DNA from: Candidatus Omnitrophota bacterium
GTDB taxonomy: Bacteria > Omnitrophota > Omnitrophia > Omnitrophales > Aquincolibacteriaceae
Direction of reading: 5' to 3'
Assembly: GCA_903884815.1 (NCBI GenBank)
Contig: CAISGE010000004.1
Span: 5,136-69,135 of the forward strand
DNA length: 64,000 nt
The translations under genes and the position numbers were made by a program. Position 1 is the first letter of the stretch, and every line of letters begins with the position of its first letter. Below the pieces are notes generated by a model. That model was given only the letters and a program-made list of their open reading frames with translations. It ran no database searches and was not told the origin of the DNA. This document shows, in pieces, positions 3,442-40,000 of this stretch.

Positions 3442-3691
3442 GTCCCGCTCCTTTACTTTTTATACTTTCGCATTTAGAGGAAATAATTCTATTCTCTTCG
3501 AATTGATTATCGGCTTGTTCTGTGATTAATTAATGCATTACCGCATCATCCAACGAAAAATTAACACATGGCTGTGAAATTAGCAAGGCCCTGAGGTGTT
3601 ATTTATTGCAAAAAGTCTGCTCGGAATAAAAGCCTCCGAACGACCCAAACAAGCGACCAAAAAGCGCCGCAACTCTTTATAATTAAAAGGG

Positions 3692-4189
3692 TTATCGAAA
3701 GTTTGTAAACTGAATTGGGAGGGTTAAAGGAGCTGTCCTCAAATGTTGCATGACAGACTGGAGGTCGTCTTTATTCTTAGAGGTCACTCGAATCTCATCT
3801 CCCTGGATGGCGGCCTGAACTTTCACGGGAAGATCCTTTATAATCTTCACGATCTCTTTAGCTTTCTCTTGCGAGATTCCTTGCGTCAGAGCCACTTCCT
3901 GGCGGAGACAGCCATCAAAAGCTTTCTCGGCGGTCATAAACTCCAGAGACTTCTGGGAAATCTTCCGGCTAGCAAACCTTGTCCTGAGAATGTCCTGGAG
4001 ATTCCTCAATTTCATATCATCATCCGCGATGATCTGGATCTTCTTTTCATCCTTCAGGAATTCCAACGTGCTTTTGCTCCCCTTGAAATCAAAACGGGTC
4101 GCGAGCTCTTTTTTGGCCTGGTTCACAGCATTGTCGACTTCCTGGAGATCGATCTGTGAAACAATATCAAAAGAGGGCTGCTGCGCCAT
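3692..4189 (-). CDS. yajQ: YajQ-family nucleotide-binding protein (UPF0234)
   Basis: MAQQPSFDIVSQIDLQEVDNAVNQAKKELATRFDFKGSKS... matches the YajQ family over its full length of about 165 aa. Confidence 0.85.
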   Translation of the reverse strand: MAQQPSFDIVSQIDLQEVDNAVNQAKKELATRFDFKGSKSTLEFLKDEKKIQIIADDDMKLRNLQDILRTRFASRKISQKSLEFMTAEKAFDGCLRQEVALTQGISQEKAKEIVKIIKDLPVKVQAAIQGDEIRVTSKNKDDLQSVMQHLRTAPLTLPIQFTNFR

Positions 4190-4570: not shown

Positions 4571-5541
4571 GTCTTAGTCGCCTTCACAAAAGCATCCTGA
4601 AAAGGCCGCGCCACATCTTTTGTTTTGAATTTTGAAAGATGCGCCTGTGCTTCGGCCTCCGTGCGAAAACTCCCGATCAGCACCAGGTAAAACAGACGGC
4701 CGCTCGGCCTCGAGTTCTCCTTTACGAAAGCGGGAACTCCCGCCTTCTTGAAAGAAGCCACGATCTGTTCCGCATCGGATCGCGTCGGGTAGGTGACCAC
4801 TTGAATAACATAGGAGTTCTTGACCGGCGCCGGCGTCACCGTGACATCTGCGGGGCCAGAAGTGCGCGGCGCAAAAGCAACTTTTGGCTTCACCGAAGCC
4901 GCAGTGTTAACGACAGAAGACACAGAAGACGGAATTACTGCCTGAGCCGGAGCCGGGGCATGTTCTCGGGGCATGTTGTAACGCACGCGCAGGGCCACTT
5001 CCCGCTGAGAATTGAGCGCATTAACACCGAAGAAAAGAAGGAAGACAACAAGGATAGCCCCTCCCCACACAAGTCCACGCCTCAGCATGGAATGCTTCGG
5101 ACTTAGAAGGTTTTTGCAAATCGCAACAACAGAATTCATCAGTTGCTGCTGGGGGCGATTCGAAGCCGTGCGGGCCGAAGCATCCGCAAAAGAGGAGGCA
5201 TTCAATTGCGAAGTGGTCCGACTTTCAAAATCATGAAGCGGCACATAGCGGGGCGCATTGTCAGACGACCGCTTCTCAGCAACCGACGCAGGGGGTTCTA
5301 CCTCGGGAGTGGTCAGAGACCCTTTCGATTGAAAAAAAAGGTCCTCGACAGGGTCTTTATCGGAGATCGCTTTTCGCGAAGGCGTCGGTGTAACCACGGG
5401 ATCGCTGAAACGCTCCCGCTCCCCAATCGCAACGTGGGGAACCTGAGAAAGAATGTCTCCGTATAGTTTTTTCTGGATCTCAGATTCTGTCAACACGGAA
5501 TCCGAACCTGCATTGGCTCTCTTTTTCTGAAAAAACCCCAT
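4567..5541 (-). CDS. SPOR-domain membrane protein
   Basis: A single TM segment (LVWGGAILVVFLLFFGV) and a C-terminal SPOR fold (YVIQVVTYPTRSDAEQIVASFKKAGVPAFV...LVLIGSFRTEAEA). The start is moved to the internal ATG at 5539-5541 to avoid overlapping the GNAT gene. Confidence 0.7.
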   Translation of the reverse strand: MGFFQKKRANAGSDSVLTESEIQKKLYGDILSQVPHVAIGERERFSDPVVTPTPSRKAISDKDPVEDLFFQSKGSLTTPEVEPPASVAEKRSSDNAPRYVPLHDFESRTTSQLNASSFADASARTASNRPQQQLMNSVVAICKNLLSPKHSMLRRGLVWGGAILVVFLLFFGVNALNSQREVALRVRYNMPREHAPAPAQAVIPSSVSSVVNTAASVKPKVAFAPRTSGPADVTVTPAPVKNSYVIQVVTYPTRSDAEQIVASFKKAGVPAFVKENSRPSGRLFYLVLIGSFRTEAEAQAHLSKFKTKDVARPFQDAFVKATKT

Positions 5542-5542
5542 G

Positions 5543-6040
5543 CTAGTCTTTCCCTTTCCCGGCATGAGCCGCCTCACGAAGCGACAGCGACAACTTGATC
5601 AGCTCGACAGGTCCCAAAACGATGTGGGCACGCTGCGCAAAACCGTTCTTGCGACAAAGCTCGATCGCCCCCGACATCCGGGAGGTCGTTTTAAAGACGA
5701 CCTCTTCATACCCGACTTCCCGGCAAAACTCCAGGGCCCGATCGATCAAACGCTTGCCGATTTTCAGATTACGATGCGTCGGAGCGACAAAGAGCCTGCG
5801 CAACAACGCGACGCGCCCATCCTCTTTCTTGATCGCGACTGTCCCGACAATTTTATGAGACTGATTTTCCACCGCGACAAAGAATGCCTCGCCGATCCCC
5901 CCGTAGGCTTTCTCAATACACTCAACGTCCTCGGTAGGATACGCGTGTTTCGCATCATGGAATTCCCGGTCCATTATTCCGCAGATAAGTTCCACAACAG
6001 CGGAGTCATCGTCTTTAACCGACCTTCGGATCGTGATCAT
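5543..6040 (-). CDS. GNAT family N-acetyltransferase
   Basis: Acetyl-CoA binding motif A: VAPTHRNLKIGKRLIDRALEF. Typical GNAT length. Confidence 0.8.
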   Translation of the reverse strand: MITIRRSVKDDDSAVVELICGIMDREFHDAKHAYPTEDVECIEKAYGGIGEAFFVAVENQSHKIVGTVAIKKEDGRVALLRRLFVAPTHRNLKIGKRLIDRALEFCREVGYEEVVFKTTSRMSGAIELCRKNGFAQRAHIVLGPVELIKLSLSLREAAHAGKGKD

Positions 6041-17873: not shown

Positions 17874-19067
17874 TTACTTGAGTGTGGCGAGCCATTCTTT
17901 CTCCAACTGAGCGGTCGAGATCAGGAGCACTTCCTCGATCGCCTGCTCGACGGGTTTCCCCTCTTTGATCTTGATGAGGATCTCTTTGATGCGGTACATC
18001 TGATATCGGTCGACCATGTAGCTGACCAGTTTAAAAACCTGCTGGTAAAAGAGCGCCACTTCAAGCGGGTCCATCTTTTCCACATCCAGATTTTCAGAAA
18101 GTAACCGGTTCATCGACATGAGGGTCTGCGTACGGATCGCCGCGTTAAATACCAGCAAGTCGACCGGCTTAATCTTGTTCTGCTCATACTGCGCCAGCCC
18201 TTCATGAAGCCAAGCAGGAGCCCGCCCGCCGCTCAGAGAAGCCACAAAGGCGTGTGTCATTTCGTGGGTCGCGGCCGAGCGCAAGTCCTGTTCCCGGAAT
18301 CCCTGTTTATAGGCCGGCAAACGGATCTTCCCGTCATACAGCCCTCCCACAAAGTCCTTCTGCCCCGTCACGTCATGGAACAGATCCCCCTCATAAAAAA
18401 GCACCGCCGTCTTGTGATTGAAGTATTGCCCGAAATCCTGAGAGATCTGGCGGTAGGTTTCCTGCAACATACTCTTCAACCAGGAACCCTCGTAGCCTTC
18501 CTCTCCCTTTTGGTATTTGATAATAAAATGCTCTTCGTCATAAGTGTCGAGGTTCTTTTCCACGGCGTTCTCTTTCTGGATCTTCTCGATCTTCTCACGA
18601 AGCCGCGTCGACGGGCTCACCAGATAGCTGCGTTTGTAATAATATTCCGCCTTCTCGAAATTCTGCTGAAGATTCTCGATCTCCCCAAGAAGTTCAAAAG
18701 CGAGAGCATTGCGCGGCTCAAGCGCGATCGACTCATTCAGTGCATCCCGCGCGAGCTCAAACTCATTCTTTTCAAAGAACTTCACGGCATCGTTATAAAG
18801 CTCGATCGCCATGGGGGTCATGGGGGCCTTGCCGTCCCGGGACGCGTAGAAGCGATCGATGTCGATCTTCTGCTGACGTTCCACGGACTCCTTGCCGTGA
18901 TCGTTATCGTTTGTTGCCGCGTGTGAGATAGCGCAAAGAGCAAAGCTCAAAGCGAAAAACGCAGGAACGCTCAGTAAAACGGGGAATGGGGAACGGGGAA
19001 CGAAAGAACATTTCCCCTGATCAATATTAGTCTGCATCTCGGGCACCATCTTTAGTCGTTGGTCCAT
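17874..19067 (-). CDS. secreted TPR protein with C-terminal MA-type zincin motif (HEMTH...EGLAQ)
   Basis: Signal peptide and TPR repeats (ALEPRNALAFELLGEI, EKAEYYYKRSY). The C-terminus has AATHEMTHAF...WLHEGLAQY, a HExxH plus E motif typical of the Peptidase_MA superfamily. The start is uncertain, at 19037-19067. Confidence 0.6.
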   Translation of the reverse strand: MDQRLKMVPEMQTNIDQGKCSFVPRSPFPVLLSVPAFFALSFALCAISHAATNDNDHGKESVERQQKIDIDRFYASRDGKAPMTPMAIELYNDAVKFFEKNEFELARDALNESIALEPRNALAFELLGEIENLQQNFEKAEYYYKRSYLVSPSTRLREKIEKIQKENAVEKNLDTYDEEHFIIKYQKGEEGYEGSWLKSMLQETYRQISQDFGQYFNHKTAVLFYEGDLFHDVTGQKDFVGGLYDGKIRLPAYKQGFREQDLRSAATHEMTHAFVASLSGGRAPAWLHEGLAQYEQNKIKPVDLLVFNAAIRTQTLMSMNRLLSENLDVEKMDPLEVALFYQQVFKLVSYMVDRYQMYRIKEILIKIKEGKPVEQAIEEVLLISTAQLEKEWLATLK

Positions 19068-20157
19068 CGTTCGGCCATCGCGACGCGCTTGCCGATCGAG
19101 GGATGATCGTAAAAAAACCATTCATACCACGCCGGGGGCTCCGGGTCCGCGAGATTCTGTTCACCGAGCTTTTTCATGCAAGTGATAAAAACATCCCGCG
19201 TCTCAAGGGCCCTCAGTGCGAAAAGATCCGCCGCCCGCTCACGCCTTCGCGAGTAACCGTTCATGAGCGGCGTCAGGATCAGATTCACGATATAAAAGAT
19301 AAGGAACAGGAGTGGCAAACCGGCAACATCGGACGCTGAAGCCAGCCCCACCTTCCCCGCCATGGCTCGAATCCCCCAAAAGCCCGCCGCGAACGCGACG
19401 AGCGAAGCCACAAGCCCGAACCCCAGCAGCCGCCAGACATCCTGGTGTTTGTAATGCCCCAATTCATGAGCCACCACCACCTCCACTTCCGGATGGGTGA
19501 AGTTCTGGATCAAGGTATCACTCAGAACGACACGCTTCGTCCGGCCAAGCCCCATAAACGCGGCATTCGCCTTCTTGGTCGTCTTGCTCAAATTAAGCGA
19601 ATAGACATTCCCGACCGGCATATCAAAGCGCGCGGCAAGAGCCAAAACCTTCGTCTCCAGGTCCTTGTCCTCAAGGCTACCATACTTGTAGAAAAGCGGA
19701 ACGATCAGAACCGGAAATACCTTGCCCAGAACATAGCTGACGAACGCGTAGGCCGCCCAGGCCCAAAGCCACCAATGGGACGGATCGGCGCGAATGATCC
19801 AATAAAGGCATTCCAGGAGAACGAGGGATAACCCGAATGAAAGAAGCGTCTTCTTCCCGAGATCCAAAAGCCACTGGCGGAAATTCTGATTCGAGAGACC
19901 GAACCGGTGCTCCAGCATGAAGCCGGAATAAAAAGAGAGCGGCAAGTCGAATATCAGAAAGAAAAGCGAGAACAGGACAAAATAGATCGCGACCACGCCC
20001 CAGTCGCCAGCACCCACGAGAGCAACGGCATTCTGCCGCATCCCGAACGTCCATCCGCTCGCGATCAATATTCCAAGCAGCGCCGGCGTCAGAACGAGCT
20101 GGAACAGGCTGAGCCTTCGATGGATGAGCTGGTATTCACGAGCTTTATTTTCCATAG
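19052..20157 (-). CDS. M48 family zinc metalloprotease (HtpX/Ste24-like), multi-TM
   Basis: VVAHELGHYKHQD HExxH in the context of several TM helices. The start is set at MENKAREY (ATG about 20155). The 407-aa track ORF has an N-extension. Confidence 0.85.
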
Positions 20158-20215
20158 ACGGCTCTTTCCATGTCACACCTATTTGAACAACCGAATGTAC
20201 GTAGCCGATCGTAAG

Positions 20216-20308
20216 TAATAGGTAGTATGTAGTAGGTAGAAAATCCGTCTTTCGTTTCCCGTTACAACCTACCATCTACTACCTATCACCTACCACATAC
20301 CACCTACC
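20216..20308. repeat. tacc/ggta-rich imperfect inverted repeat in the 285-bp region upstream of the M48 protease gene
   Basis: Left arm TAGGTAGTATGTAGTAGGTAG. The right arm CTACCATCTACTACCTATCACCTACCACATACCACCTACC is its imperfect complement. The mismatches become G-U pairs in the minus-sense RNA. Confidence 0.4.
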
Positions 20309-22044: not shown

Positions 22045-25000
22045 CTAGGCGGCCTGAAGTACCTGAAGGAACGCGTGGATCGCGTCCCCGATCTGGTTCA
22101 AACGGCTCTGCAAGCTTTCGTCGGTAGCGGTAATACGTTTTCCGGGCTCAAACCCCATTTCCATGATCGTCAATTCGCTGAGTTCTTTGCCGGGGACAAG
22201 CGCCTGAGACAAGCCCACGGCTCCCAATCGAGACGCCATACGAAGGTCAGCATTCGTCGCATCATAAGCCTCCTCCACCACGACGCCTTTGGCTGTATTC
22301 AAATTATCCGTCAGCTTTCGCATGATGGCGCGTGCGCCCAACAAGACATAACTGCCCCCGCTGGCATCCGTGTTTAATTTATCGTTCAGCTTTTGCGTGG
22401 TCGTCAGGAAGACGGAAAATCTCTTTTCAACATCCTTCCTGAGCATCCCGCGCTTTTCAGCCGCCGCGATAACCCTGTTCTTCAAAGCCCGAACCTGGGC
22501 CGGCGAGGGACCTTGTTTGCCAAGATCGGTGACCACCGGCAACTTGTAACGCATCTCCGGATTCGGGTTTAACATAAAGATCGCAACGATCGTTCCCACC
22601 CACGCATCCAGTTCCTTTTCGTCCGTAGGCAACGCGTCCACCAATTCAAAGACCCGACCGGCCCCCTGGCCCGCCAGGTGGCTGAAAGCCTTAGGATTGG
22701 ATCTTTTGAAAGCGCTCACGATATCAGGCGCCTCTTCCCCACCTGCGGCAGCAAGCAATGACTCCAGCTTTCGGGCGGCTTCTTCTGGCGAATCCTGACT
22801 CAACGCCATGATCCCGCCCACCAGGAACGCCACCAACACGATGGCCTCCGGCATCTTCGCGTCCACACTCAGAGCCGCACGGACCTCGCTCATTTTTTTC
22901 TTCCCCAACAGCGCCCGCAGCTCGGGCGGCAAGGCCTTCAAGATATTCGCTCCGGCATCCACGGTCTTAGTACCGCGAGCCTCAGGTTCTTTCTGATATT
23001 GCTCCGCAAAACCCGTCACCTTCAGGGCCGCCGCGATCGCCTTCACCGTAGGCCTCGCCTCCGACCGCATCTCCCCTTCTTTTGCCTCTGTCCGGACTGC
23101 GGGAGCCGTTGGGGATTGCCCCATGACCGGCAGCACGGCCGCCTCCACCGCCGCACCCCTCGCTTGGTCAAGAGCCGCTTCCATAGCATCAACCGCGTTA
23201 GCTACAGAAGACTCCTCCCTCGCCGCACGGAAGCTTCCAGCAACCAGGGCTTTGGCATCCGCGCTGGGATTCTGGGTCAATTCCTTGACCATTTTCGAAA
23301 CCGCCAGAGACGCAATGCCGAGTCCCACATTCGCGTATTCTTTTCCAGTTTCTGCCTTAAGAAACTCACAAACCGCCTGACCCGCCTCCAGGGTCATTTC
23401 AAACCTTTCCGGCTGTTCCAGCGCCTCTATGGCGAATGTGAGCGCCACAACATAAACACTATCAGGATCATAGATCCTTCTGGCGAAATCGTTAATGAAA
23501 CCGTTCAATCTCTCAAGCCTCTCCTTCCCCAACCCAAGAGCGTCCGCATTGCCGCTACGCAGATACCGCTCAATGGCGTTTTCCCCTCCTGGGATATGAG
23601 CAGTCAGGGCTGAAAGAAAGCGCCTTTCACGAGGGTGAGTTTGCGTCCCATCCTGCGCTTTCCATTCAGCATACTCGGCAGATTTGAGAGGATCCGTCTT
23701 TTCGATCTTTTCACCTATTTCGGCCGTTTTTTGGATAGCCTCCCCGCTGACCCTGGCCTCCTCCACGACAAGAGAAAGAGACCGCTGGTTCTCCGGAATT
23801 TCCGACGTCCTCGCGGAACGATAATCTTTGTGGGTCAATTCGTGGATCACCGTTTCCAGATCCTCGAACTGATGGAACTTCGTCCGGACCAGGATCACAC
23901 TCTTGCCTCCCCCAAGATCGATATGCGAGCCTTCATGCGTCGCATCCGAATACAGGGAGTGAGATAGTTCTGAATCATCCGCGACAAAAATAATCTCGTC
24001 GGCATCCACCGAAATACCGGCATCAGCCAGCAGAGCAAATATTTTCTTGGAATGTTCCTGAACAAGGCTCCCCCAACGCCCGTTTTTTACGATATCGCGT
24101 ATCACTTCACGAACGGAAGCCGCGTTATTTTCCGACAAACCTTTCATCACCATTCCGGCACTCCCTTGAGTAGAACGCTCATCCTCCAGGGCCTGTTCAT
24201 AACTGCGGACCGCCCCTTCCAAACGTGCCAAGGCGGCCCCGGGTAGCGCAGCCTCAGCCTCCTGCCCAGAGTTCGACCCAACGATATCCCTGAGGACACT
24301 CAACAAACCCTCTGTCGCCCTCGATGAATCGGCCTCTCGCCGGCTTAGATTCGTCGCAAAGATCTTCCAAAAAACTTCTCTGTCGATATTCTCTCTCTCC
24401 GGCAGAGCCGCGTTTCTTTCCAATAGCTCCGAAACAGAAGGCCGCTCCAAACGCGCCCGGATCGCTCCCATATCCGGCGAATACAGGGCCACCGATCCCG
24501 GCGACATATGCAAAACCGAATCCTCCCAAGCGTTCGTGACAACCGCCTCGCTTGGCCGCTCTCCCGTTAATATTGCTAGCGCGGCGGCCGACTGCGATTG
24601 AATAGGAGTAGAATCCTTCTTCGCCCCCGCTTTTTGCTGATTCACCCAACGGATCAAAAGTGCAACATGAGACAGGCCCATCTTTAAGCTGCGGATGTAA
24701 TTGCTGATGATCCTGATACACTCATCCCGGTGATTTACAAAAAAATCGAGCGCTTCCTTTTGAGAAAGAGACAAGTCTCTCCATTGAGAAGATTTCTCAT
24801 GAAGTACGGCATCGATCGCTTTTCCAATATTGAGGTCCCGCGCATTCCATTCCTCGAGGTCGGTCGCGACATTGAGCTTGGCAGGGTCCACATCCCGGAG
24901 CCTAAACGCCATATCCAGAAGAAAGCGATCCGCCATGGCTGAGATCATTGTCTTTGTGAAGGTAGACAATCTCACTTCAGAACGATCCGACACGCTGCTG

Positions 25001-28000
25001 GACCGCACCTCCGCCACCGGCTTCGCTCCCGCCCGCAGATCGCCGCGGGTACTCACTGGCGAAATAACCGGCATTGTGGACGTCTGTCCGACTACCCCAG
25101 CCAGCAACTCCCGCGTCTCGGAGCGGTCGGGCTCGTTGGGAATCCCGAGAAATGTTGCGCTTTCATCAAACGCAGACTGAACCTGATCAAATGGAATTTT
25201 TAGAAAGCCGGCCAGCTTCTCCATTTTTTCGGCATCGAATCCGGGCCGGAGGGACATCAGCCGGATCAATTCCCACTTCGAACTTGGGGTAAGAAATTCA
25301 AGAGGAATGGCTTTGCATTTTTCCTTTTCAAAGATCAGATCGCGAGATGCCACACCATACCGCCGGAAGCCGCGCTCGCTCGTTTGCTTCTCCGGGTCGA
25401 TTTTGACGCTTTCAAAATCCTTGATATACAGCTTTGCCGTTTCCATATCTGGAAAATTAAAGATCAGCAGGCCTTCTTCCTGCCAGGAAAGCGCTTCCTC
25501 GATCGCAATCGTAACCATCCCGCGGCTCATTTCTCCGGTTGCCGCCAGATCCCCCAGCGGATCACGATCGTATTTTTTCACGCCATGAAACCAGATCCTT
25601 TTAAGTCTCGCGTCGCTGAACTCATATCCCGTCTTCACTCGGCTGATATCGCCATTTTTGAGCCCCGCTTCCAATTCGCTCGGCAAAAGAGGGACACCAT
25701 CAACATTCACCAATGCAGCTCCGTCTTTCATCTTCAGGTCGGGATAAGTTCTCGTCTCGGAACGGATTTGATCGGTGGTTTCAAGCGTGCGGCGTTCTTG
25801 CCGCTTACCCTCGGCGGGTTGGACGGGCGCCTCATGACCTGCGCCCTCTGGCGTAACACCAGACTTTTCCACGAACTTCTTCGTCTCAGCCTTGATCGTT
25901 TCTGTCATCACTTTCGCCACATCCGCACCTCTCCCGATAAAATTTGGCGACAAGGCCGCATCCACGAGCGTCGGAACGACATCCTTCTCGGCGAAAGCTT
26001 TAAATACCCTCTCCACCTCTGCTTTCAACCCCGCCGCATTAAACGGATCTTTTCCGTCTTTGTTCTTCATGGAAAAACCGTCCATATCGAAATCAAGGAT
26101 CAAGGGTTTTCCAGGATCGGCTTGCGGCAATTCTTTCAAGTACACAATGTGAACTTTGATCGGCCTGAGGTGGCTCAGCGTATATTTCTCTAAGATTCCT
26201 GGATAGCGCTTCCCCGGATCCTCCTCCGGATGCATATAGACCTGCTTATCGCTGGGATCGGTTTTTGACGTAAGAAGCCCAACATAATAGGTACCCCCTT
26301 TCAACACAGCGGGAGCAGCTCCGGGATACTCCGGAAGGATCCAATATATCTCGCTGATCATATGCTGAAGTACCGCAGGAGCGATAAACCCCTCGATGCT
26401 AAAGCTTGGCTTGGACATATCCGGCTTATCCGGATCCTTCACATTTTCAAGGTCCCCCAGATCAAAGTGAGAGTCCCAGTGATAAAGCACCGCTTCGTGA
26501 ATCCCAGCTGCCGCCCATGCAAGGTAAGCGCTATTATGATTCTGCATCATATACACGGGAGCTTTCCCCATATACCCCGTCAGGTGGATACCATCTTTTT
26601 CATGTTTTGTGACGCTGGGAACATAATCTGGCTCGAGTTGTTGGCCATGCAGTGAAATGGAGGCCGCTAACGATAATCCCGCAAGCCCCGCTCGCCGGAG
26701 CAACGCTTTCCGCACCTCGGAGCGATCGGTAGCCGCGGTGGAGTTATTTGACCGGGACTCGGAACGGCCTCCGGGCGCAACAAAATCGTGAAAATATCTA
26801 TCTTTCGGCTCGTTAAAAAAGAATCCCGATCGGGCGGCAAACAGATAGTGACGTTTTACAAAATCCTTGAGCGCCGCGGAAGCATTATCATCTCCTTGTA
26901 TTTCCCCGAAGAATTCCTCGCCGTTGTCTTCTTCATGGACCCTCATGACAACATCCATGAACTCATCGGCGGAAAGGCTCCAATTTTTCTCGTTTATAGG
27001 TTTTAGCTCAGAATTTTGCGGCAGCCTCGCTGTTGACCTGCTCGGCCCGCTCCCCAACATCTGTCCTCCGGCAACAAAGGGTGTTCTACGAGGTATGCCA
27101 TCGAGCTGTCCCCCTCCTACAGGAGTAAACGACTCCATGATCTCCCAGGCCGCCCGCGCCACGGGAAGATCGCCGTTATCGGCAAGCCGGAGCACCAATT
27201 CGTTATCCACAACCCGCATCACGACATTACTCCTCCGTGGATTTCCGTACATCCTGCCGGTCCCTTTAAACGAGCTGATCATGAAGGCAATAGCACGCGC
27301 ATCTAGATATTTCAGTAGTCCGGATAATTCTTCCCTCAAGCGGGATCGCTGGTCCAACATTCCATCATCGATCTGAGGGCCGCCATTGAGAGACAAGAGT
27401 CCCATCGCCCTCAGACCATCCATGTGCTCCATCAACGCATCCTCGGATAAAGCCTCAATGTCCGTTCCATCCCACTTTGACCGGGTTAATTCTTCGAGGA
27501 TCTTCACAGGCTCATCCATAGGGATATCGCGCTCAAGCATCTTCACGGCGGGCCTCTCCTTTTTAGCAGGAACCGGCGGTAACACAACCGGCTGCTCCGA
27601 TGTTCCCACGAGAGGTCCTGGCTGATCGATCCCGGCATGAGACGCAAATGATTCCGACAATGCTTGGGCTCGATCTGCGGGTTGCAGGGATAATTCGTCG
27701 AGAAAATCCACTAAGTGGAATCCCAATGGGGGATGCCCTGCGTTATCCGCCATATAGCTGTCTCTATAACGCACGGCATATTGATTCATGAGGTTTTCAT
27801 GATGCTGCCCCGTAAAAAACAAGGCCAACTCACTTTTGATCCTGTCCGGCGATTTCAATATCCCGTAATCCACAAGAGCCATAATAAAATCAAACCGCTC
27901 CTGCGGGGACATCGAAAGCCCCCTATAACCCGGAAACCATCCTTCCATATATTCCCGCATGTCTTCATTCTGGGTGAGAGTCCCCGTCGTGACGCCGTCG

Positions 28001-31000
28001 CCCGCCGAAGCCTTGTTCAGCGCAACAAGGCTTCGCGCCAGAACACCCCGTTGCTGCATGAGGCCGTCTGACGCCCTGCAGCTTTTATCAACTTCCAGTA
28101 AGAGCGCGATCCTGGAGGGCAGTCCTTGCGTCTTATCTTCCCTCATGAGTAGATCGACCACAGCCTGAAAGATCTCGGGATCCGAAGCACCTTCTTTGAG
28201 AAATTGCGTAAGACGCTCATCGCGCAGCGGATTCCCTTCGCGCTGAGTTTCAACCCAAAACCTGAGTTTGCGTATACCCTCCCGCCGCACATCCGCCTCT
28301 GCCGATCGCAGCTCATGAAGAATATTCCCCATAAGATCAAATCCCAACGGATTTTTCTGTTGAGGGATGGGCGGAAACATATCCTCCCGTGACTGGCCGG
28401 GGTTGGCGGCATCCATGACCTTACGGACCTTCTCCGCATGCGCCGAGTTCCCCCGATCATCATTAAATCTCTTATTCGTATCATTAAACAAAGCCTCATC
28501 CGCACGGATCAATGCCAACGCCTGATTCGCCACATAAGAAGCTCTTGCAAGACCCTTCCGAACTTCCTCGCTTGGATGAGCGCCATATTGGTCCGCGCTG
28601 AGCTTCATAAAACGTTCGATATGTTTTTTAATTTCAAGCAAGGAGTGAAAGTTCTTAAGGTCCGGATCATAATAATCGTGAAGGGCTCGAAGCGCCCCGA
28701 TCTCACCTTTCAGATAATAATTAAAAACGCGGTGAACGAGCTCTTCGAGCTTTTCGAGCGGCATGGCGGCGGGAGAATCGTAGAGGATATGATGTTCCCG
28801 CGCAAAGTTCGCGAACGCCCGCTGATTATTAAGGTCTTCCCCGTCAAGGTCGTACCAGCCACCGCGGGGGGCTTTATACGTTTCGAAGCCATCGTCCTTA
28901 GCATCCGCACCAGCCGCCTTTATCTTCGGAGCAAAATCCATCGGCATCACACCTTTATCAAGAAGTGTGGCTGCCACCGCGTCGCTCACGGTTTGAGTCG
29001 GATCCTCCGAAAGCCTCCGCACCTCGATCCCGCTCGATGCGGGAAGAGCGGCCTCCGGCAGGAAAGTTTCGTTACCGAGGATCACGGATCCGGGAGGAAG
29101 CTTCAATGAACCGATGATTACCGTATCCATCGGATCGATCACGGCCAATTGGTCTAAAACAGCCGCTAGAGGAATCAAAACGACATATTTCGCACGGTAA
29201 AAAGGTGAGCGCTCGGGAAGAAGGGAACTTGTCACTGTTGAATTAAGACTGAAATGCAACGTCTCCCAGGCATGTGGCTGCAGAAAGTCCCCGTTGGGAG
29301 TCAGGACCTCTTCGGAAAAGAAACTTCTGGGATGGATAAATCCATCTTCTTCCGGATTTGCATCCGTCATGTGTACGAGATAGATCTGGGCGATATTCAG
29401 GGTTTCTCCGTCCCTTGAAATAGGAAACCCCTTTTCTTTCAGACTCGCCTTGGCGCGCTTCCACTTTTCCATAACAGCGCGAGACCACCCATGACTGAAC
29501 CGATTAGCGCCCTTGGACCGTGTCGAAGGCGCGCGTGCGGGCTTGGATGGGGCGGGCTTTGCGACAAAAGAGGAAGATGCCTCCGCAGGCATGCCCTTCC
29601 TGCGCCCATTCGTCACCAGTTTTTTCAGCTCTTCATAATCAGGTGATTTGAAATTCATCTGCTCGTCGAACGCGTGCTCCCGCAGCCCGGCGTAACTCCC
29701 CGCGTCAACCCTGTAGAACTCGGTCAGGATTTGAAAGAACTGCGCGATCGGAAGCTGCGCTTCCCTGGCAGCGGTCCTGACCTCCACAAAAGCATCCTCC
29801 AAGGCTTGGGCAATTTCAGCATCATCCCCCCGGATTCTGGCAGAATACGTCCGTTCAAGCATCCTTCCCAGAGGATCAAATGCGATGAGTGCGTTAGCAA
29901 GTTTCCGTTCTTCGGGAGTAAATTCAAAGAGATCATAGAGCTTGTTGTCTTGGATCAGCTGGAGCGACCTTTTATGCTGGAGGCTCTTATCTCCATCATC
30001 CTCCACCGCCGTCGGCTTCCCGACGTCGTGAATAGCAATCAATAAGCGGTAAAATCGCGGTGAAAAGTTATTGGGGAAGAACTCTTTTCGTTGCTCGAAT
30101 TCGTGAAGCACCTGGGCATCATGCTTTCGCAAACTCAGTTTCTGCACGACTCCTACGCTTCTCGGAAATTCATTTCGCAGCACCGGAACGCTTCGTGCCA
30201 AATATTCAAGAAATCGATCAATGCTGTCGCCATCCATCTTTGCCGAATTCGCCAAGTTCAAAGCATCTCTGACCCGCGTCTCAGAACGGCCGGCACCCGG
30301 CTCGGCGGGGCGAACTTCTGCGGCATTGGGCGGATTCAAGGATGGCCCCCGGCCCACCAAAAGCTCTCCGATCTTTAACAGTCCTGCAAAAAAGGCCGAC
30401 TTCAAGAATCTATTCACTTTTGCGCGGGCTGTGGTCAATCTCCCGGGCTGATCCCACTTGAAGATCAACTTTGCCGCGTCAAAAAGGAAGAAGATCGCAA
30501 CAGCAGTCATCCCACCCAAAAGGAAGAACGCGCCAGCATATTTGAGGGCCAGCGCAAAGCCCGCAAGGGTCCGCTCCTCCTTGGTAACGCCGCCCTTGAT
30601 CACCTGCTCAAACCAGGGCGTCTGCCAGGGTAACTCCAGCACATCCCAGAGCAACAAATAAGCGATGATCGCGACTTGACCGAGAGGCGAGGTCTCGACA
30701 GGGGCCTGACGCAGGACAGACGCGATAAGCTTCGCCACGTAAGGAAACGTGCTCAGATAAACGACCAGGTATTCAACCGCATAAAGAAATCCGGGATGCT
30801 TTAAAATCTCTCGAGCCCTCATCGACGCGATGTATCTCACTACCTGGATCATAATCAGTCCGGGAAGAAGTACTCTTTGAAATTGCTTCCAAAGGTTCGC
30901 CGGTGAAACCCATCGTGAACCAGACCGACTCAAACCAGCCTCCGCCGGCGTGGCGGAAGTTTCAGCTCCCTCTGTTTCGGGAGAGGAGGCGACCGAAGCC

Positions 31001-34000
31001 GATTTTTTGGGCGAATACTTTGCGGCAATCTTTATTGCAAGCTCCCCGATCTCACCAAGCGGTTTTTCATATAAGGGACCGGCCAATCTTGCCTGAGCCA
31101 AGGCCCACTGCTCCATTTTGGCAACTTCTTTCCGACTCGGATTTCTGTCTGCTCCAAGTTCGGAAAACTTTTTGATCGGCGGTAAGATCCGCTCAAGAAT
31201 ATCGCCGGCCAGGATCATTTGTCCGAGATCCAAGGACTCATGGCTCTCCATATACAGCCTCGCCACGAAATCCGCGGGATAAGAGGTGGCATACCTTTCT
31301 AAAAGCCATTTCCCGAAATCTTCCCCTTCAGAGTAGGTGCTGTAATGGGCCCCTCTCTCACGGTTAAAGTTTGCGTTAAAAGTTCCGTCGATAAGATCAA
31401 GATCTCCCGTCCAAGATTCCCCTCCCCCGGTTCCATAGAGAAAAGGCCTCCAAGACGCATGCAATTCCTTCGGAGTTTTCACAACGCTCTGCCCCGCGAC
31501 TTTTCCGGTCGGGGTGCCAGTCGCAAGCGTTTTAAATAACGCAGCCCCCAGGAACCTTCTGTCCCGAAAGGGTCCTTCTGTCGAACTCGCGCCGATCTGC
31601 AGGTCACTCAACAAATGCGTGTACTCATGCCAAAAGACAGAAGCCCATGAATCAAAAGTCATCCCGTCCGTTTGGGACTGTATTTTCACTTCAAAACCCT
31701 CTGGACCTGGGAATTCAAACCCGTTCGGATGACGGATGAACACCCTTGCAAATGTCGTGGTAAGATCATCCGTCTGAAAAAGGATCGAAGTCGACCGCTT
31801 GAGGATTGTCGATGCCTCTGCGTTGTCCTTGCCGTCAATACCCGCCGCCTCGAGGTATTTCTTAATAAGGTAATCTGTCATGGCGGCCCAATAGCGCATG
31901 AGCAAAGGAAAATCCGCCGGAATATCCATTCCCCGTTCTCGTTTCAATTCCCTGAAACGCTTTTCCTCGCTCACGTAATGCGGGTATTTCGAAGCCTCGG
32001 CTTTCAATATCGGTAATGCCTCGTGATAGGGAATCCCCTTCTCCATCAACTGCCGTATTGTTTCGTTTATTCCGGCCATAAATCTTGCGTCTTCTAGAGA
32101 TAATCCGGTCGACCCCTTCTCGATTTCCATGGCGACATTTAACTCTCCCGCGCCCTTCAGCGGAGTCACCACCACACGCTCGATAATAGCCCTCACGGAC
32201 CAGAGCTGATCGGATTCCACCATCCAGCGATAAACCCGGTTTGACTTCATTGCTGAAAAGCACAGCACCCCTGCCAACGCGGGGGGAACGAGTATTCGGA
32301 CGAGCGGGGACCGCCGTAATCTTCGCCAAATATTTCGCCGCTGCTCCGCACGCGACTCTGAGGAGCGTGCAGGTTGGGCAACGTCAGTCGGGGTGCGGGT
32401 TTCGGAGCGGACATTTGGAATATTAATTTTCGCCGCATCAGCACCGCTCAGGTCCTCCACAGACAGCCAATCAGCCGATTTGATGGAACGGACCATTTTG
32501 AGCAATTCCAGAGAAGTCATGCCCGAAAAATTGAAGAGTTGCCCGCAGGAAGCCAGCAAATTAAAAACATCCATCACGTCATCTTTAACAGGAATACCCG
32601 CACGCTCCAGCTCGGCGATCACACCCAAAAATTTTCCGATCATCGACTTACCAGACGCAAGAACATTGCTAATCTTCACCTCGACATCCGGGTTCATCGA
32701 TGCCTGGCCTACAAGGAGAGCTCTAAGTTCTTTAACAGCCATTTTCCGGGCAATTCCCTTGCCAACCGGCAATTTCTGACCGATCAATAAGGCCTGCATC
32801 AGTGCCCACAGACTCTTACGGCTATCGATGCTAAGAGTCGACGCAGCGCCGAGATCGATAATGGAGATGCGGATCTTTCCCTCGGCCGTGCGAGACACAA
32901 AGATATTTCCCCTGTGCGGATCCGCATGATAAAACCCGCAAATAAACATCATCCGGAAGAACAAATGTCCAAGAATATGTTCAACCGCAACGGGATCAAT
33001 TCCCAGAGCGGCAACACCCGCGTCGTCGGTAAGTGGCACTCCCGGCGCTGTCCTTTCCCTCATGACTGAATTTTGGGCTATTTCGTGAGCGATCGGCACG
33101 TCAAATTCATAGCCCCGGAAAGCGTTCTCCGCGCCCGCCTGCACAACGCGGATCGCTTTGGCGAGTCTTTTTTGATTCTCACCCTCCAGATCAAAATCCA
33201 TCTCCTTCCGGATCCGGTCCTCCACTCGGTCCAGCATCTGCTTCGGGACATTGATCTTCAACTTGTCCCCCAGCATTGCCGCCACGCGCCGCATAAATGC
33301 AATCTCCTCCTCTATGCGCTGTTCCCCGTCCGGGCGTTTGATCTTCACGATTTCTCTGCTTCCGTCCTGAGTGAGCGCCTCGTCTACTGCCTTAACCGAC
33401 GCGTTCCTTTTTTTATTATGCAGCTCCTGAAAGACATCCGTAAAACTGCCGAAGACCCTGTCGGTCATTTCAAACTTATCCTCGATCGGCATTGGATTCG
33501 CGCCATCCTTTAATCTCTCGAGGCGCGCCCGGATCTCGGGCGTGATGTCCTTGTCATCGATAAGAGGGGAAGAGGAAAGAATCTGCCCGAGCTTGACCAT
33601 GGTGATCCCGAACGATTCGAAGACAAGCCCAACGACTTCAGCCTCTCTCTCTTCCCGGGAAAGTCCTGGATCAGCAATGCGTGACAGTCCCGCGCAAAGA
33701 GATAAAAGCACCTGCTCTTTTCTGTAAGGGTCGCCTGCCTCTATAAGAATATCGTATATCCCCTTATAGAGGTCCCGGCGTTCCTTTTCAGTGCCGGCTT
33801 CCCCCTTGGGGTAGGCGTAGTTGAAGATAGCGTCGAAAAGATCCGCCGCTGCGTGATTGGGATATTCCCGCACGTAGGGAAGTCCGTGCTTCGTGGACAT
33901 ATCACGTCGCGTCACCTTCGCGGTTTCAGCCAAGACGCCGTTCTTACCGTACAACAGTAGATCCAGCATGTCTTGCCGCAGGCTGGTTCCGATGCCTTTA

Positions 34001-37000: not shown

Positions 37001-40000
37001 GTTTGAAGTTCTTCCATGGTTTCGGCACTGCTCATCAAATCGAGAATCATTTTGAGCGATGCCTTATCCCCGTAGTTGACAAAGCTCCCAGTTATGCGCT
37101 TCGACACAGCTTCCTCTTTAAGACCGCTTTCGCGCGTTCTCCTCCGTGATTGACCACCTAACTCCTTGGTAGCCAGCGTCGAAATATCACCTCGGGTGTC
37201 ATTAAAATGACGCCAATATCTCTTTTTCTGATTCTCCATATTCTTGAGGCGTCTCTCCACCGTATTGTGTTCCCCAAGCCACGAGTCTTTAAGATTATTC
37301 GCTTTCATATATTCCCGGATACACCTCATCGCCATGATCGCGCCCTGCATTGAATAACCAGCCGATTCCATAAAATCCAGCGCGTTATTGTCCGCATCCT
37401 CTTCGTCTGTAAACCGTACGGCACGACGCTTGAGGATCGAATTCAGCGGAGGATTCACCCCCAACCGTTGCTCTTCCTCATAGTCCGCCCAGCCCTGTTT
37501 GATATGCCCGGTCTCATGCGAAAGGATATAGGCAATCATCGCCCGCGACCCTGCAAGTTTTTGATCAGGCGGCAACTGAGCAACATAAGCTTCGATCAGC
37601 TTCAAAAACCCAAGCGAAATATAAACGCGATGATCACCGGGATAAACAAACGCGTCGGGTTCATTCTTGTCCATGAGATGAAGTTCAAATTGATCCGGAA
37701 CAAGTCCCACTTTTTGAGACCCGAGGATGTCCCTGAAAACAGTCTCGACTTCATTATAAATCCCTGAAAACTCTCCCGAATTTCTTCCGATCAACCCATC
37801 TTTCGCTAAAATCGCGCGCATTGCCGCGTTATTTTCTCCCTCGATCGCCGCGTCGATTGGAATCCGCCCTTTAACAGGCAAGGTCCGTGTCTCAGCACGG
37901 CCATTCAAATAATTCTCAATCGCTAGATCAAAATCAGCAGGTTCGGCTTCCAGAAAACGCACGACATTCCGGACAAAATCCCTTTTGATTTTATCCGTTG
38001 CATCCATTCCTCTCAAATGCTGAAAAACAGGCTTAGAACTCTCCCCAAGAACACCGCCCAGAAATCCCAGTAATTCCGCAGCATCTTTAAAGAACCTCCG
38101 TACGAGTTGCAGCTGCCCCAAAACCGTTGTGAAAGCTGAAATCAAGACTTCGTTAGAGTCGGTCGGCAGGTCGAACGCTTTAACCGGATCGATAAACACA
38201 AGATCAGGTGTGGCCCCTTTGGCCACCTCTTCTGGATTCCGAAGTAATACATCGTCGATGCCGTAATCATAAACGACGCCTACCGGAAATCCGGACTGGA
38301 ATTCAAACTGAACCTGAGACCATAACAGGTGAGCATCCGAAAGCAACTGTTCAAAGATCCTCTTCCGGATCCCGGGATCCTTATTCGATTTAATGAACGA
38401 TTCTAGAGTGACGCCGCTCTCCCATTCTGAAAGCTGCATATAAACTAGATCGGTGTCTACAAAATGCACTTGGGAATCGACCGATATCTCGCGGGCAACT
38501 TTGCGGGCAACTCTCGGATTGGAGACGATCTTCAGGTTCAATGCCTTATCCCGCTTAGCGGACTGCAAATTCAAATGACGCTCATCAGAAAATTTTATCG
38601 CAAGATCCCGGGATACCCCGCCGGCTTGAAAGGTCATACGATGAACGTGTCGACCGGAGCCTGAAAGAACGCCTGCGTGAACTGATATATGGATCACCTC
38701 GTTCACAGGAATACCCACATCGGCCAAATAATGATTTAATTCGGATTCATGCTCATGAAGGAAAGGAAATAGCCTTTGTTCGAACAGCTGATGACCATCC
38801 TGAAATCCAGCTTGATTTCCGGCCGCGCTCCACTCAAAAATCAATCCACCTTTCGTCAGCTTCTCACCCTTCTGCCCTGACGCGAGATCTTTGGTACTTA
38901 CAGGCTCCGTAGTAGCAATGGGCTCTTCAGTCGGCCGGACTTTGGAGCGTGGTTTTTGGCGGCCTTCGGAGCGGGCGAGTGAGACGGTGACGGAATATTT
39001 GGATCCGTCTCCGATGGGCGTGAAATGAACGGCATAGAACTTTCCGTTCTTCGTGAAGGCATCGCTTGTCATAACATACCCGTTCTCACCTTCGGGTTCG
39101 ACATTCAACGGGTGTTCGAATTCCTTGGCGACAAAATCGTTATAGAATTTTATCGTTGCTTCAAGATTTTTGGGATCGCCTCCTAGTAGCTTTAAAAACC
39201 AGCTCTCGAGATGTCTTTCCAGCGCCTCGATATCGACCCCTTGATCAGACAAGACTCCTGACCGCTGCAGCACGCTTGGTAATTCCAGGGTCGCGAGGTC
39301 GAACAAGCTGGACTGCGTCTGGAGCATATTCTGCCGGTACATCTTGTCGTTGCTTTTCTCGGTAAGACGCGGGGTGAGAATACCGTAACTGGTCTGATGT
39401 TCCCGGAGGAGGTCCGTGATCCCGTCCGTGTGAAAACCGCCGGTGACGAGAATGGCTTTGGACACCGCTCCCTTGGTCATGACGTCGTTGATCTTTTCGT
39501 AAAACACATTTTCACGTTTATGCGCGGCTTCGTAAAAACTGTAGGCCGCCGCTTGGGCGCCTGTCACTTCCGAGCGGAATTTGTCATTCACTTTCTTGGT
39601 CTCGAAATTCGAAAGCGGCAGCCCGTACTCTTTGCTGAGCGCCGTGCCGATCACTTTAAGTCGCGCCACCATCGCGTCCATGGACAGTGAGTCTGCATTT
39701 TCCGTCATTCTGAAGCCTGCGGCCGAAGAATCTCCGCCAAGATCCTTCGCTTCGTTCAGGGTGGCAGGGGTTTTGACTAATCCTCGTTTCTGCTCCACCT
39801 CCTGCCATTCCTTGCGCGGAAGCTCGAGGTTGAGGAGCTTGCGAATGAGCTCTTCATCACGGAACAGCTGCACGAGTTCCTTCTGCCGCGGCGACACAGC
39901 CTGGGTGTCGAGAATGCGCGTGAAAACGGCCTTGATCTCCTCAAATAGGCCTTTCGGATCAAGTTCGTTTTTTAAGATGAGATAACCGGCATAAGTGCTG

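Follow-up and report, generated by a model that had tools for sequence, protein, structure and literature searches.

A recurrent R-[S/A]-E-x-R junction motif in giant modular proteins of Omnitrophota-like bacteria, and a candidate endopeptidase to read it

Giant open reading frames (ORFs) are a hallmark of the Omnitrophota, and their function is poorly understood. The stretch of DNA analysed here (the window; 64,000 nucleotides, positions 5,136 to 69,135 of contig CAISGE010000004.1 in the Candidatus Omnitrophota bacterium assembly GCA_903884815.1) encodes one such protein, of 6,349 amino acids, in which the pentapeptide RSE[TV]R recurs, and the question that this locus raises is what so short a motif does in so large a protein. 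Our data show that RSE[TV]R is this gene's variant of a junction motif, [small]-R-[S/A]-E-[V/A/L/I/M/T]-R, that recurs throughout a family of giant modular proteins from Omnitrophota-like bacteria. The motif is under protein-level selection, is specific to giants headed by a TIKI-like domain, and lies on module boundaries and on breakpoints of homology. As to its function, we give just short of an even chance to a recognition site at which an endopeptidase would release the modules, with the N-terminal domain as the best candidate for that enzyme and with the 15-mer that encodes the site also acting as a short homology for frame-preserving exchange.

All six RSE[TV]R copies reported by the initial annotation are present on the minus strand and in the frame of the giant ORF, at residues 2896, 3603, 4791, 5111, 5324, and 5371 (Table 1), and the codon strings given for them are correct; an aspartate, said to precede four of them, precedes three (4791, 5324, and 5371). 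Five more copies had been overlooked, RSEGR at 708, RSESR at 4777, RSEAR at 6010, and the alanine variants RAETR at 1066 and RAEQR at 2915, which brings the protein to 11 R[SA]ExR, nine of them RSExR; degenerate copies are found at 2911 (SSESR), 6068 (MSEVR), and 3390 (RSGSR). The rough estimate that the motif stands far above chance is borne out by computation. Composition predicts 0.017 copies of RSE[TV]R against the six observed, and the shuffled-composition null proposed at the time returned a mean of 0.017 and a maximum of 2 in 20,000 global shuffles. Shuffles that keep local composition (blocks of 20-100 residues) gave a mean of 0.02-0.03, again with a maximum of 2, and RSExR, observed nine times, reached at most 3 in global and block shuffles. 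After post hoc correction over all one-wildcard 5-mers, RSExR with its nine copies is the best real pattern, versus six or fewer for the best pattern in 1,000 shuffles; the top exact 5-mer of the protein is RSETR with four copies, versus at most 3 in the shuffles. The remaining real ORFs of the window are devoid of RSExR.

Homologous giants, in which the initial annotation had advised looking for the motif, bear it too, and independent ones hold up to 18 copies. To collect family ORFs, we searched contigs from metagenomes with an N-terminal domain alignment, which gave 79 loci, and the majority of ORFs with this domain are dense in R[SA]ExR. Most of these relatives run off their contigs, and locus residue numbers count from the start of the tblastn match, not from a verified start codon. 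The 66 nonredundant family ORFs (168 thousand amino acids) contain 310 R[SA]ExR versus about 9.5 expected, a roughly 30-fold excess, and while the expectation per ORF is about 0.3, single genes reach 18 copies in 3,820 amino acids (L147), 16 in 3,366 (L163, two Q-initial variants included), 14 in 3,766 (L101), 13 in 3,985 (L117), and 13 in 2,691 (L152, one Q-initial variant included). Other ORFs of at least 200 amino acids in the family loci hold 39 copies versus 11.8 expected, and 28 of the 39 lie within ten other large ORFs, so that ordinary neighbour genes are at expectation. What family ORFs have in common is only the N-terminal domain of about 600 residues. The giant of L003, for example, is homologous to the window protein over the first ~700 residues only (40% identity) and nevertheless carries seven RSE[AT]R in 3,275 residues, and the second ORF of L084 has 15 xSExR, with Q in first position seven times, R four times, and F, H, L, and N once each.

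Over 300 copies, the consensus reads S/A/P/G at positions -3 to -1, then R, S (78%) or A (22%), E, a fourth residue in the order V>A>L/I/M/T (V 32%, A 21%), R, and finally A/G/T/S. At the DNA level, conservation is three-periodic: at R, S, E, and R, the information content is 1.8-2.0 bits for codon positions one and two and 0.3-0.4 bits for position three, which is the mark of selection on the peptide.

The initial annotation had placed several copies in linker-like stretches between modules, and both the Pfam layout of relatives and the disorder profile agree with this. In L147, L163, and L152, all Pfam domains fall between copies; an Aldose_epim domain (689-917) is flanked by copies at 592 and 928, a GGDEF domain (1586-1758) by copies at 1413 and 1768, and PHP, WD40, GNAT, and PGM domains are enclosed likewise. 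Copies follow one another at a median spacing of 215 amino acids. Mean disorder propensity is raised from about residue -30 to +12 around the motif and is back at baseline by +18; the motif is thus the C-terminal end of a linker, just ahead of the next module. In L003 a receiver-domain-like N-terminus (MLVVEDDE, assigned by reading the sequence) begins five residues past a copy, and in the window protein nine of nine RSExR sites are at or above the 75th percentile of the disorder-propensity scale. The structure prediction suggested for the linkers was informative in one place only: AlphaFold2 (AF2) gave a predicted local distance difference test (pLDDT) score below 50 at residues 693-720, which hold the first copy, and a single-sequence prediction of residues 4760-5420 was uninformative (mean pLDDT 34). 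That first copy has a fixed place in the architecture. It lies a median of 148 amino acids past the conserved GGFH of the N-terminal domain, within 200 residues in 41 of 57 cases, and in a MAFFT alignment RSExR falls into one column for 16 of 16 members that use this motif, RSEGR 708 of the window protein included. Past the first junction, motif positions are not conserved.

Furthermore, homology between giants starts and stops on the motif. Comparison of related giants in 14 pairs yielded 59 internal ends of high-scoring segment pairs (HSPs), which lie a median of 19 amino acids from a motif copy, compared to 120 for random positions, and 54% are within 25 amino acids of one, compared to 15%. 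Relatives with N-domains of 40-80% identity can differ wholly in their modules. The clearest case is L142 versus L147, whose N-domains are 81% identical: several modules are kept in the same order with different blocks inserted between them, and HSPs begin and end on motif copies. At one copy, the L142 DNA upstream of CG[CT]TCGGAAGT[GC]AGG corresponds to L147 residues 562-596, and the DNA downstream of the same 15-mer to L147 residue 1188 onward. As identity switches partner at the 15-mer, the crossover lies inside the 15-nt motif. A whole module is shared in the same manner; residues 1250-1347 of L142 equal 2843-2940 of L147 at ~90% DNA identity, with motif 15-mers on both sides and unrelated flanks. 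Assembly chimerism was considered as a source of these rearrangements and dropped, because the k-mers of the assembly, to judge by the contig names, exceed a 15-nt repeat in length and the compared genes differ by several percent throughout.

If the motif is cut, which enzyme would do so? The initial annotation favoured one of the protein's own zincin modules. This is not supported, because motif-rich relatives (L147, L163, and L152) have neither a zincin nor another known peptidase domain in Pfam, and the element that they share is the N-terminal domain. This domain had no sequence match in Pfam, NCBIfam, or the PDB, and the Pfam profiles TraB, Erythro_esterase, and Cofac_haem_bdg matched none of nine N-domain members at E<=5. 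An AF2 model built from nine sequences (mean pLDDT 67, core 70-90; medium confidence) has an alpha/beta fold with the parallel beta-sheet core of the TIKI / EreA / ChaN / TraB superfamily. Its fold matches, with their scores, are the Ere-like proteins 2qgm / 2rad, annotated as "succinoglycan biosynthesis protein" (9.0), EreC (6xcq; 8.7), ChaN (2g5g; 8.6), HopBA1 (5t09; 8.6), a TraB protein (8bqs_DQ; 8.0), and RRSP, the Ras/Rap1 endopeptidase of MARTX toxins (5w6l; 7.7). RRSP and Tiki are site-specific endopeptidases, and the N-domain is therefore a reasonable candidate for reader and protease of the motif. H76, E104, H555 (in GGFHT), and R564 are invariant in the alignment of the N-domain, and H76 and E104 are 28 residues apart, as are the catalytic His-Glu pairs of Bcr135 (H85/E113) and RRSP (H3902/E3930) (PMC6254334), a likeness by spacing. 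The N-domain thus resembles the TIKI superfamily (Tiki, RRSP, TraB/PrgY, erythromycin esterases, and ChaN) in its best fold matches, in the invariant His and Glu at this distance, and in a second His within G-G-x-H; it differs in lacking a TraB or Erythro_esterase profile match, in its larger size (~550-600 amino acids), and in long helical insertions. Judged by the model, it looks like an undescribed branch of the superfamily that heads dozens of giant ORFs in metagenomes, and it is the best candidate that we can name for the motif protease.

A specific reader is also suggested by members that do not use R[SA]ExR at all. L131, L132, L137, L144, L160, L150, L140, and L126 lack it and have another motif that recurs in their linkers, [GA]-[AQSH]-S-L-G. 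In the long ORFs of this clade, SLG is present 6-10 times versus about 2 expected and [GA]xSLG 5-8 times, and the first SLG copy lies 66-183 residues past GGFH, again just after the N-domain. The two motif classes are mutually exclusive and largely track N-domain clades. Within the RSE class, the fourth residue is homogeneous within a gene (p<2e-4), and the preferred variant switches between close relatives (N-domain distances of ~0.25), from RAEKR (seven copies in L106) to RSEVR (L092) and RAEAR/RSEAR (L097). The swap of the whole motif and the lineage variants would imply a specific reader, and the two exclusive classes offer a natural experiment on the co-evolution of reader and site.

A family protein is composed of a signal-peptide-like segment, the TIKI/RRSP/erythromycin-esterase-like N-domain, and then a string of unrelated enzyme-like modules. 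In our model, a sequence-specific endopeptidase, most likely the TIKI-like domain encoded in cis, would cut this polyprotein into its modules at the motif. Near-identical in-frame 15-mers would furthermore recombine by short homology, so that modules are deleted, inserted, or exchanged while frame and junction stay intact, and this would explain the fast module turnover. Several observations weigh against the model. Cleavage at the motif is, from beginning to end, something that we infer. Giants that bear the N-domain and neither motif class exist (several of P0003-P0026). Of the six copies reported at first, five have no homologous region in any fetched relative, and at the sixth (2896) the nearest homolog reads YRGRTS in place of the motif; conservation at aligned positions, by which the initial annotation wished its proposal to be judged, thus holds at residue 708 and fails at 2896. 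The synonymous sites within the motif are biased, which a purely protein-level role does not predict. Finally, some copies stand only 3-13 residues before the stop (3825 of 3832 in P0071, 1603 of 1612 in L109, and 1875 of 1888 in L089), where a cut would release nothing useful; such copies would suit either a junction at the terminus or a gene recently truncated at one. It is imaginable, though we regard it as unlikely as a whole, that the giants are single-frame cassette arrays in which one 15-nt element (R-[S/A]-E-x-R or [GA]xSLG) would be both the recombination junction and the cut site of a cis-encoded TIKI-like protease, with site and reader co-evolving. If true, such dual-role arrays would be a new bacterial route to build and diversify multi-effector polyproteins.

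Does the peptide matter, or the DNA beneath it? From the different codons of the six copies, the initial annotation had concluded that conservation is at the protein level and not due to recent DNA duplication. The first half of this stands, as the copies differ at synonymous sites; the second half does not hold in full, given the codon bias inside the motif and the module crossovers at the 15-nt site. In the window gene and 32 related genes, the serine of the motif is TCC in 52% (background 22%) and AGY in 5% (33%), and the first arginine is CGY in 79% (40%). At the fourth position, Val is GTG in 66% (30%), Ala is GCG in 74% (35%), and Ile is ATA in 57% (12%), and the last arginine ends on a purine in 80% (60%). 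The Glu codon has no overall bias and yet is homogeneous within genes (p=1e-4); seven of seven copies in L003 read CGC TC[CT] GAA, and 13 of the 15 xSExR copies of L084 read TCC GAA. The window gene uses TCY for Ser in 8 of 9 copies and CGY for the first Arg in 10 of 11 (binomial p roughly 1e-3 and 2e-4). TCN and GCN are one base apart, and the alternation of S and A can therefore account for the missing AGY; the remaining bias may reflect a recent spread of copies by recombination or a constraint at the RNA or DNA level. Two such constraints were tried and rejected. A translated Shine-Dalgarno sequence or an internal start at the fourth position does not agree with the enrichment of GCG next to GTG and ATA, with Leu codons that have no TTG/CTG bias, or with the lack of an overall GAG preference at Glu and of start-compatible spacing, and an RNA hairpin across the 15-mer would, on inspection, have a stem of at most 3 bp in some copies only.

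The strongest rival makes the DNA primary: the in-frame 15-mer (CGY TCC GAR NYR MGR) would be a cassette junction or recombination site and the peptide its translated footprint, as if integron arrays, or the VENN/DPxGL junctions of polymorphic toxins, had a counterpart within coding sequence. The crossover inside the 15-mer and the module with 15-mers on both sides in L142 and L147, the homology breakpoints that cluster on the motif, the complete module differences at 40-80% N-domain identity, the bias at synonymous sites of the motif, and the codons shared within genes all suit it, and so do the copies a few residues before stops, where a terminal attachment site would make sense. However, three-periodic conservation is the signature of selection on a peptide and not of a DNA site, and the copies of the window gene vary freely at synonymous sites while they keep R, S/A, E, and R. 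There is no recombinase gene next to the giant in the window or in the syntenic L083, and a direct repeat of 15 bases is enough for passive short-homology recombination, so that no dedicated site function is needed. We consider a primarily DNA-level function an unlikely alternative.

The peptide might also be bound and not cut, as a docking motif for a chaperone, a secretion factor, a membrane-insertion factor, or a domain of the protein itself that organises or targets the modules. Docking would look much like this, with a linear peptide that sits in flexible linkers and varies between lineages, and copies close to the C-terminus could well be bound, whereas cutting there would be of no use. 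A transmembrane (TM)-like segment follows within 5-60 residues in 9.7% of copies versus 4.5% at random positions, about twice as often, and precedes the motif in 1.6% versus 4.8%, three times more rarely. This asymmetry is real but a minority feature; with a TM-like segment near only ~10% of copies it goes little way toward docking, and neither the export or sorting signal proposed by the initial annotation nor the n-region of a Tat or Sec signal, which we considered and dropped, is supported by it. Moreover, the sole candidate for a binding domain that motif-bearing proteins have in common is the hydrolase-like N-domain, and a swap of the whole motif to [GA]xSLG at the same architectural positions is typical of pairs of protease and site, although a binding pair is still compatible with it. 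A non-cleaved docking motif is therefore, in our view, quite unlikely.

Modification of the motif, also raised at the outset as a recurrent phospho-acceptor site (R-S-x-T), is highly improbable. The serine is invariant in the nine RSExR of the window protein, although RAETR 1066 and RAEQR 2915 have Ala; Thr is common at the fourth position there, and an ABC1 domain that might be the kinase is part of the same protein. Family-wide, this is contradicted by the Ala in 22% of copies, which makes RAExR the dominant form in L106, L134, and L097, and by a fourth residue that is Thr in 7% and Ser in 3% of the 300 copies only, and the motif-rich giants of L003, L147, L163, and L152 have no ABC1 domain. 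A mere compositional artefact of Arg/Ser/Glu-rich low-complexity linkers retains practically no probability, since the copies do sit in linkers of biased composition but the global and block shuffles, the correction over all patterns, and the excess repeated in independent relatives refute it. Two further origins were rejected. Repeated internal domains of which the motif would be a part were not found by self-BLAST of the window protein and nine relatives, and the alginate-lyase signature R(S/T/N)E(L/V)R of family PL7, which goes with Q(I/V)H and YFKAGxYxQ in a jelly-roll domain, does not apply, because there is no YFKAG and just one unrelated QVH, and the copies lie in linkers and not in a repeated domain. 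In the literature, RSExR-type pentapeptides are met only as this unrelated signature.

Returning to the endopeptidase site that we prefer, the closest known systems are the autoprocessing sites of MARTX-type toxins and the VENN/DPxGL junctions, and what would be new here is the sequence, the candidate protease, the copy number, and the serial modules. In MARTX and large clostridial toxins, a cysteine protease domain (CPD) cuts after Leu in unstructured linkers between effectors. The resemblance lies in a very large protein with several unrelated effector-type modules, in a short recurring site in flexible linkers, and in a presumed cutter encoded in the same polypeptide, and MARTX toxins include the TIKI-fold RRSP. 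The [GA]xSL-G motif of one clade would fit a CPD-type site with Leu and a small residue. In contrast, no C80 CPD domain was detected in the present family, the R-[S/A]-E-x-R sequence differs from the toxin site and exceeds it in length, a TIKI-like domain at the N-terminus is the putative protease, the hosts are Omnitrophota, and cleavage is putative. VENN (CdiA) and DPxGL (Rhs) are demarcation motifs at the border between the conserved and the variable part of polymorphic toxins. There, as here, a short peptide and its coding DNA stand at a border, what lies downstream is replaced wholesale in close relatives, and homology breaks at the motif. Unlike in these toxins, up to 18 motifs per protein separate a series of modules and not one C-terminal toxin, the sequence differs, and the modules resemble common enzymes (GGDEF, aldose epimerase, PGM, GNAT, ABC1, and zincins). 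We saw no immunity genes or orphan modules, the downstream genes being housekeeping-like and syntenic, and noticed no VENN or DPxGL on reading the translations, in which no pattern search was made. Integron arrays are a further comparison. Modules of the giants are bounded by 15-nt direct repeats with codons homogeneous within a gene; the repeats are far shorter than attC and have no inverted-repeat structure on inspection, and the genes around the giant in the window and in L083/L084 include no recombinase. Viral polyproteins and processed surface polyproteins of bacteria, with the Arg/Lys sites of gingipain/HagA and the S/T-X-F|X-D/E sites of Mycoplasma hyopneumoniae, also have a recurrent site in disordered regions between domains, and one that differs between lineages, as would be expected if it co-evolved with a protease. 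Motif and proteases are others there, and those systems have experimental cleavage maps, whereas ours is argued from sequence.

Published work suspects that giants are cut into smaller products and states that no cleavage-point information exists (West-Roberts et al., bioRxiv 10.1101/2023.11.21.568195). The full text of that giant-gene preprint and of a 2026 complete-genome preprint (bioRxiv 10.64898/2026.06.07.730766) describes no such motif, and a text search of Seymour et al. met no mention of cleavage or polyproteins. The motif would thus provide, for the first time, specific positions at which to suspect cuts and module boundaries, so that giants can be split sensibly for structure prediction and expression, together with a candidate protease, the TIKI-like N-domain. 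It also shows a gene evolving by gain, loss, and exchange of whole modules at a short in-frame repeat. Whether and where giants are cut, and how they are assembled, becomes a question that experiments can address.

Table 1. Coordinates of the giant gene, its motif copies and recognised domains in the window, and of exchanged segments in two relatives
Feature	Coordinates	Strand	Remarks
Giant ORF, 6,349 amino acids	22045..41094	-	19 kb; bears all reported copies
N-domain, folded core, residues ~45-590	39325..40962	-	EreA/ChaN/TraB/TIKI/RRSP-like hydrolase fold (predicted)
RSEGR, residue 708	38959..38973	-	First junction copy, directly C-terminal of N-domain; column shared with relatives
RAETR, residue 1066	37885..37899	-	Ala variant, just upstream of M48-like module
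Peptidase_M48-like zincin module, residues 1115-1209	37468..37752	-	HETGH at 1193
ABC1 atypical kinase-like domain, residues 2527-2772	32779..33516	-	In core common to other giants; homology to giants ends near residue 2855
RSETR, residue 2896	32395..32409	-	First copy of C-terminal extension; TM-like segment near residue 2940 follows
SSESR (2911, degenerate) overlapping RAEQR (2915, Ala variant)	32338..32364	-	Clustered with 2896 copy
RSETR, residue 3603	30274..30288	-	Start of module 3590-3801
RSESR, residue 4777	26752..26766	-	Next copy 14 residues on
RSEVR, residue 4791	26710..26724	-	Then signal-peptide-like hydrophobic stretch, then UPF0489 module
RSETR, residue 5111	25750..25764	-	
RSETR, residue 5324	25111..25125	-	
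RSEVR, residue 5371	24970..24984	-	
RSEAR, residue 6010	23053..23067	-	Last full copy, ahead of C-terminal module
MSEVR, residue 6068	22879..22893	-	Degenerate; TM-like segment near residue 6090 follows
Crossover segments	L142 2913-3095; L147 7824-8006 and 9612-9794		
Shared module	L142 4950-5423; L147 14577-15050		

From N- to C-terminus, the window giant has a signal-peptide-like start, the TIKI-like N-domain, a core shared with other giants that ends near residue 2855, and ~3,500 amino acids of C-terminal extension. Its homology to other giants comprises the N-domain, the M48-like module (~1090-1330), and a block at ~1980-2855 that includes ABC1, and it stops ~40 residues before RSETR 2896. 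The extension, with all six copies reported at first, has almost no homologs among the proteins fetched; the exceptions are residues 2969-3388 (around HEYTH), which match the 467-residue protein P0135, and 3590-3801, which match part of P0009. Residues 4700-5500, with five copies, had no homologs in a word-indexed search, a scan of genome contigs with residues 2500-3699 gave no match, and the C-terminal module of the window protein shares no homology with the one that is conserved in the L092 group. Pfam (E<=1) on the segments between motifs added only UPF0489, NCBIfam gave no match on the protein, and Rfam gave none over the whole giant gene. The protein has four HExxH sequences, HETGH 1193, HEYTH 3156, HEGSH 5720, and HELTH 5751, of which only HETGH lies inside a zincin (M48) recognised by Pfam, and module 3590-3801 contains an HD-like HDVGK.

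The gene itself occupies a slot that is syntenic across Omnitrophota genomes, between uvrD (window 41311-43428) and a block of acyltransferase, EEP phosphatase, M48 and MA_2 peptidases, and BatD that extends to a trpB-like gene (13026). Upstream of the giant lie the mur and ftsA region, the glycine cleavage system, lplA, and uvrD. Identical DNA at this locus occurs in several independent ENA metagenome assemblies, and with 100% identity to the window, assemblies L001 and L002 have no polymorphism to read. The closest UvrD proteins in GTDB species genomes (62% identity) belong to the metagenome-assembled genomes (MAGs) L003 and L004, the latter a "Candidatus Omnitrophota" MAG, and in both a giant ORF follows uvrD. 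The slot holds a 1,125-residue protein in L083, a 1,073-residue protein and a separate ORF of at least 3,318 residues in L084, and the 6,349 residues of the window giant; by this comparison, the slot after uvrD is a hot spot for expansion of the giant gene. Within the downstream block, window 17874-20275 (minus strand) encodes a Ste24/HtpX-like M48 peptidase with a five-helix N-terminal domain and a Peptidase_MA_2/TPR protein, and the same pair is found downstream in L083. These two peptidases are possible candidates for proteases acting in trans.

Large ORFs that adjoin family genes carry 2-5 R[SA]ExR themselves, namely those of L086 (minus strand, ~3578; 2,810 amino acids), L119 (plus strand, from 2; 3,164 amino acids), L120 (plus strand, from 3, 14851, and 18524), and L091 (plus strand, from 1). 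It is therefore possible that other giants in these genomes use the motif as well.

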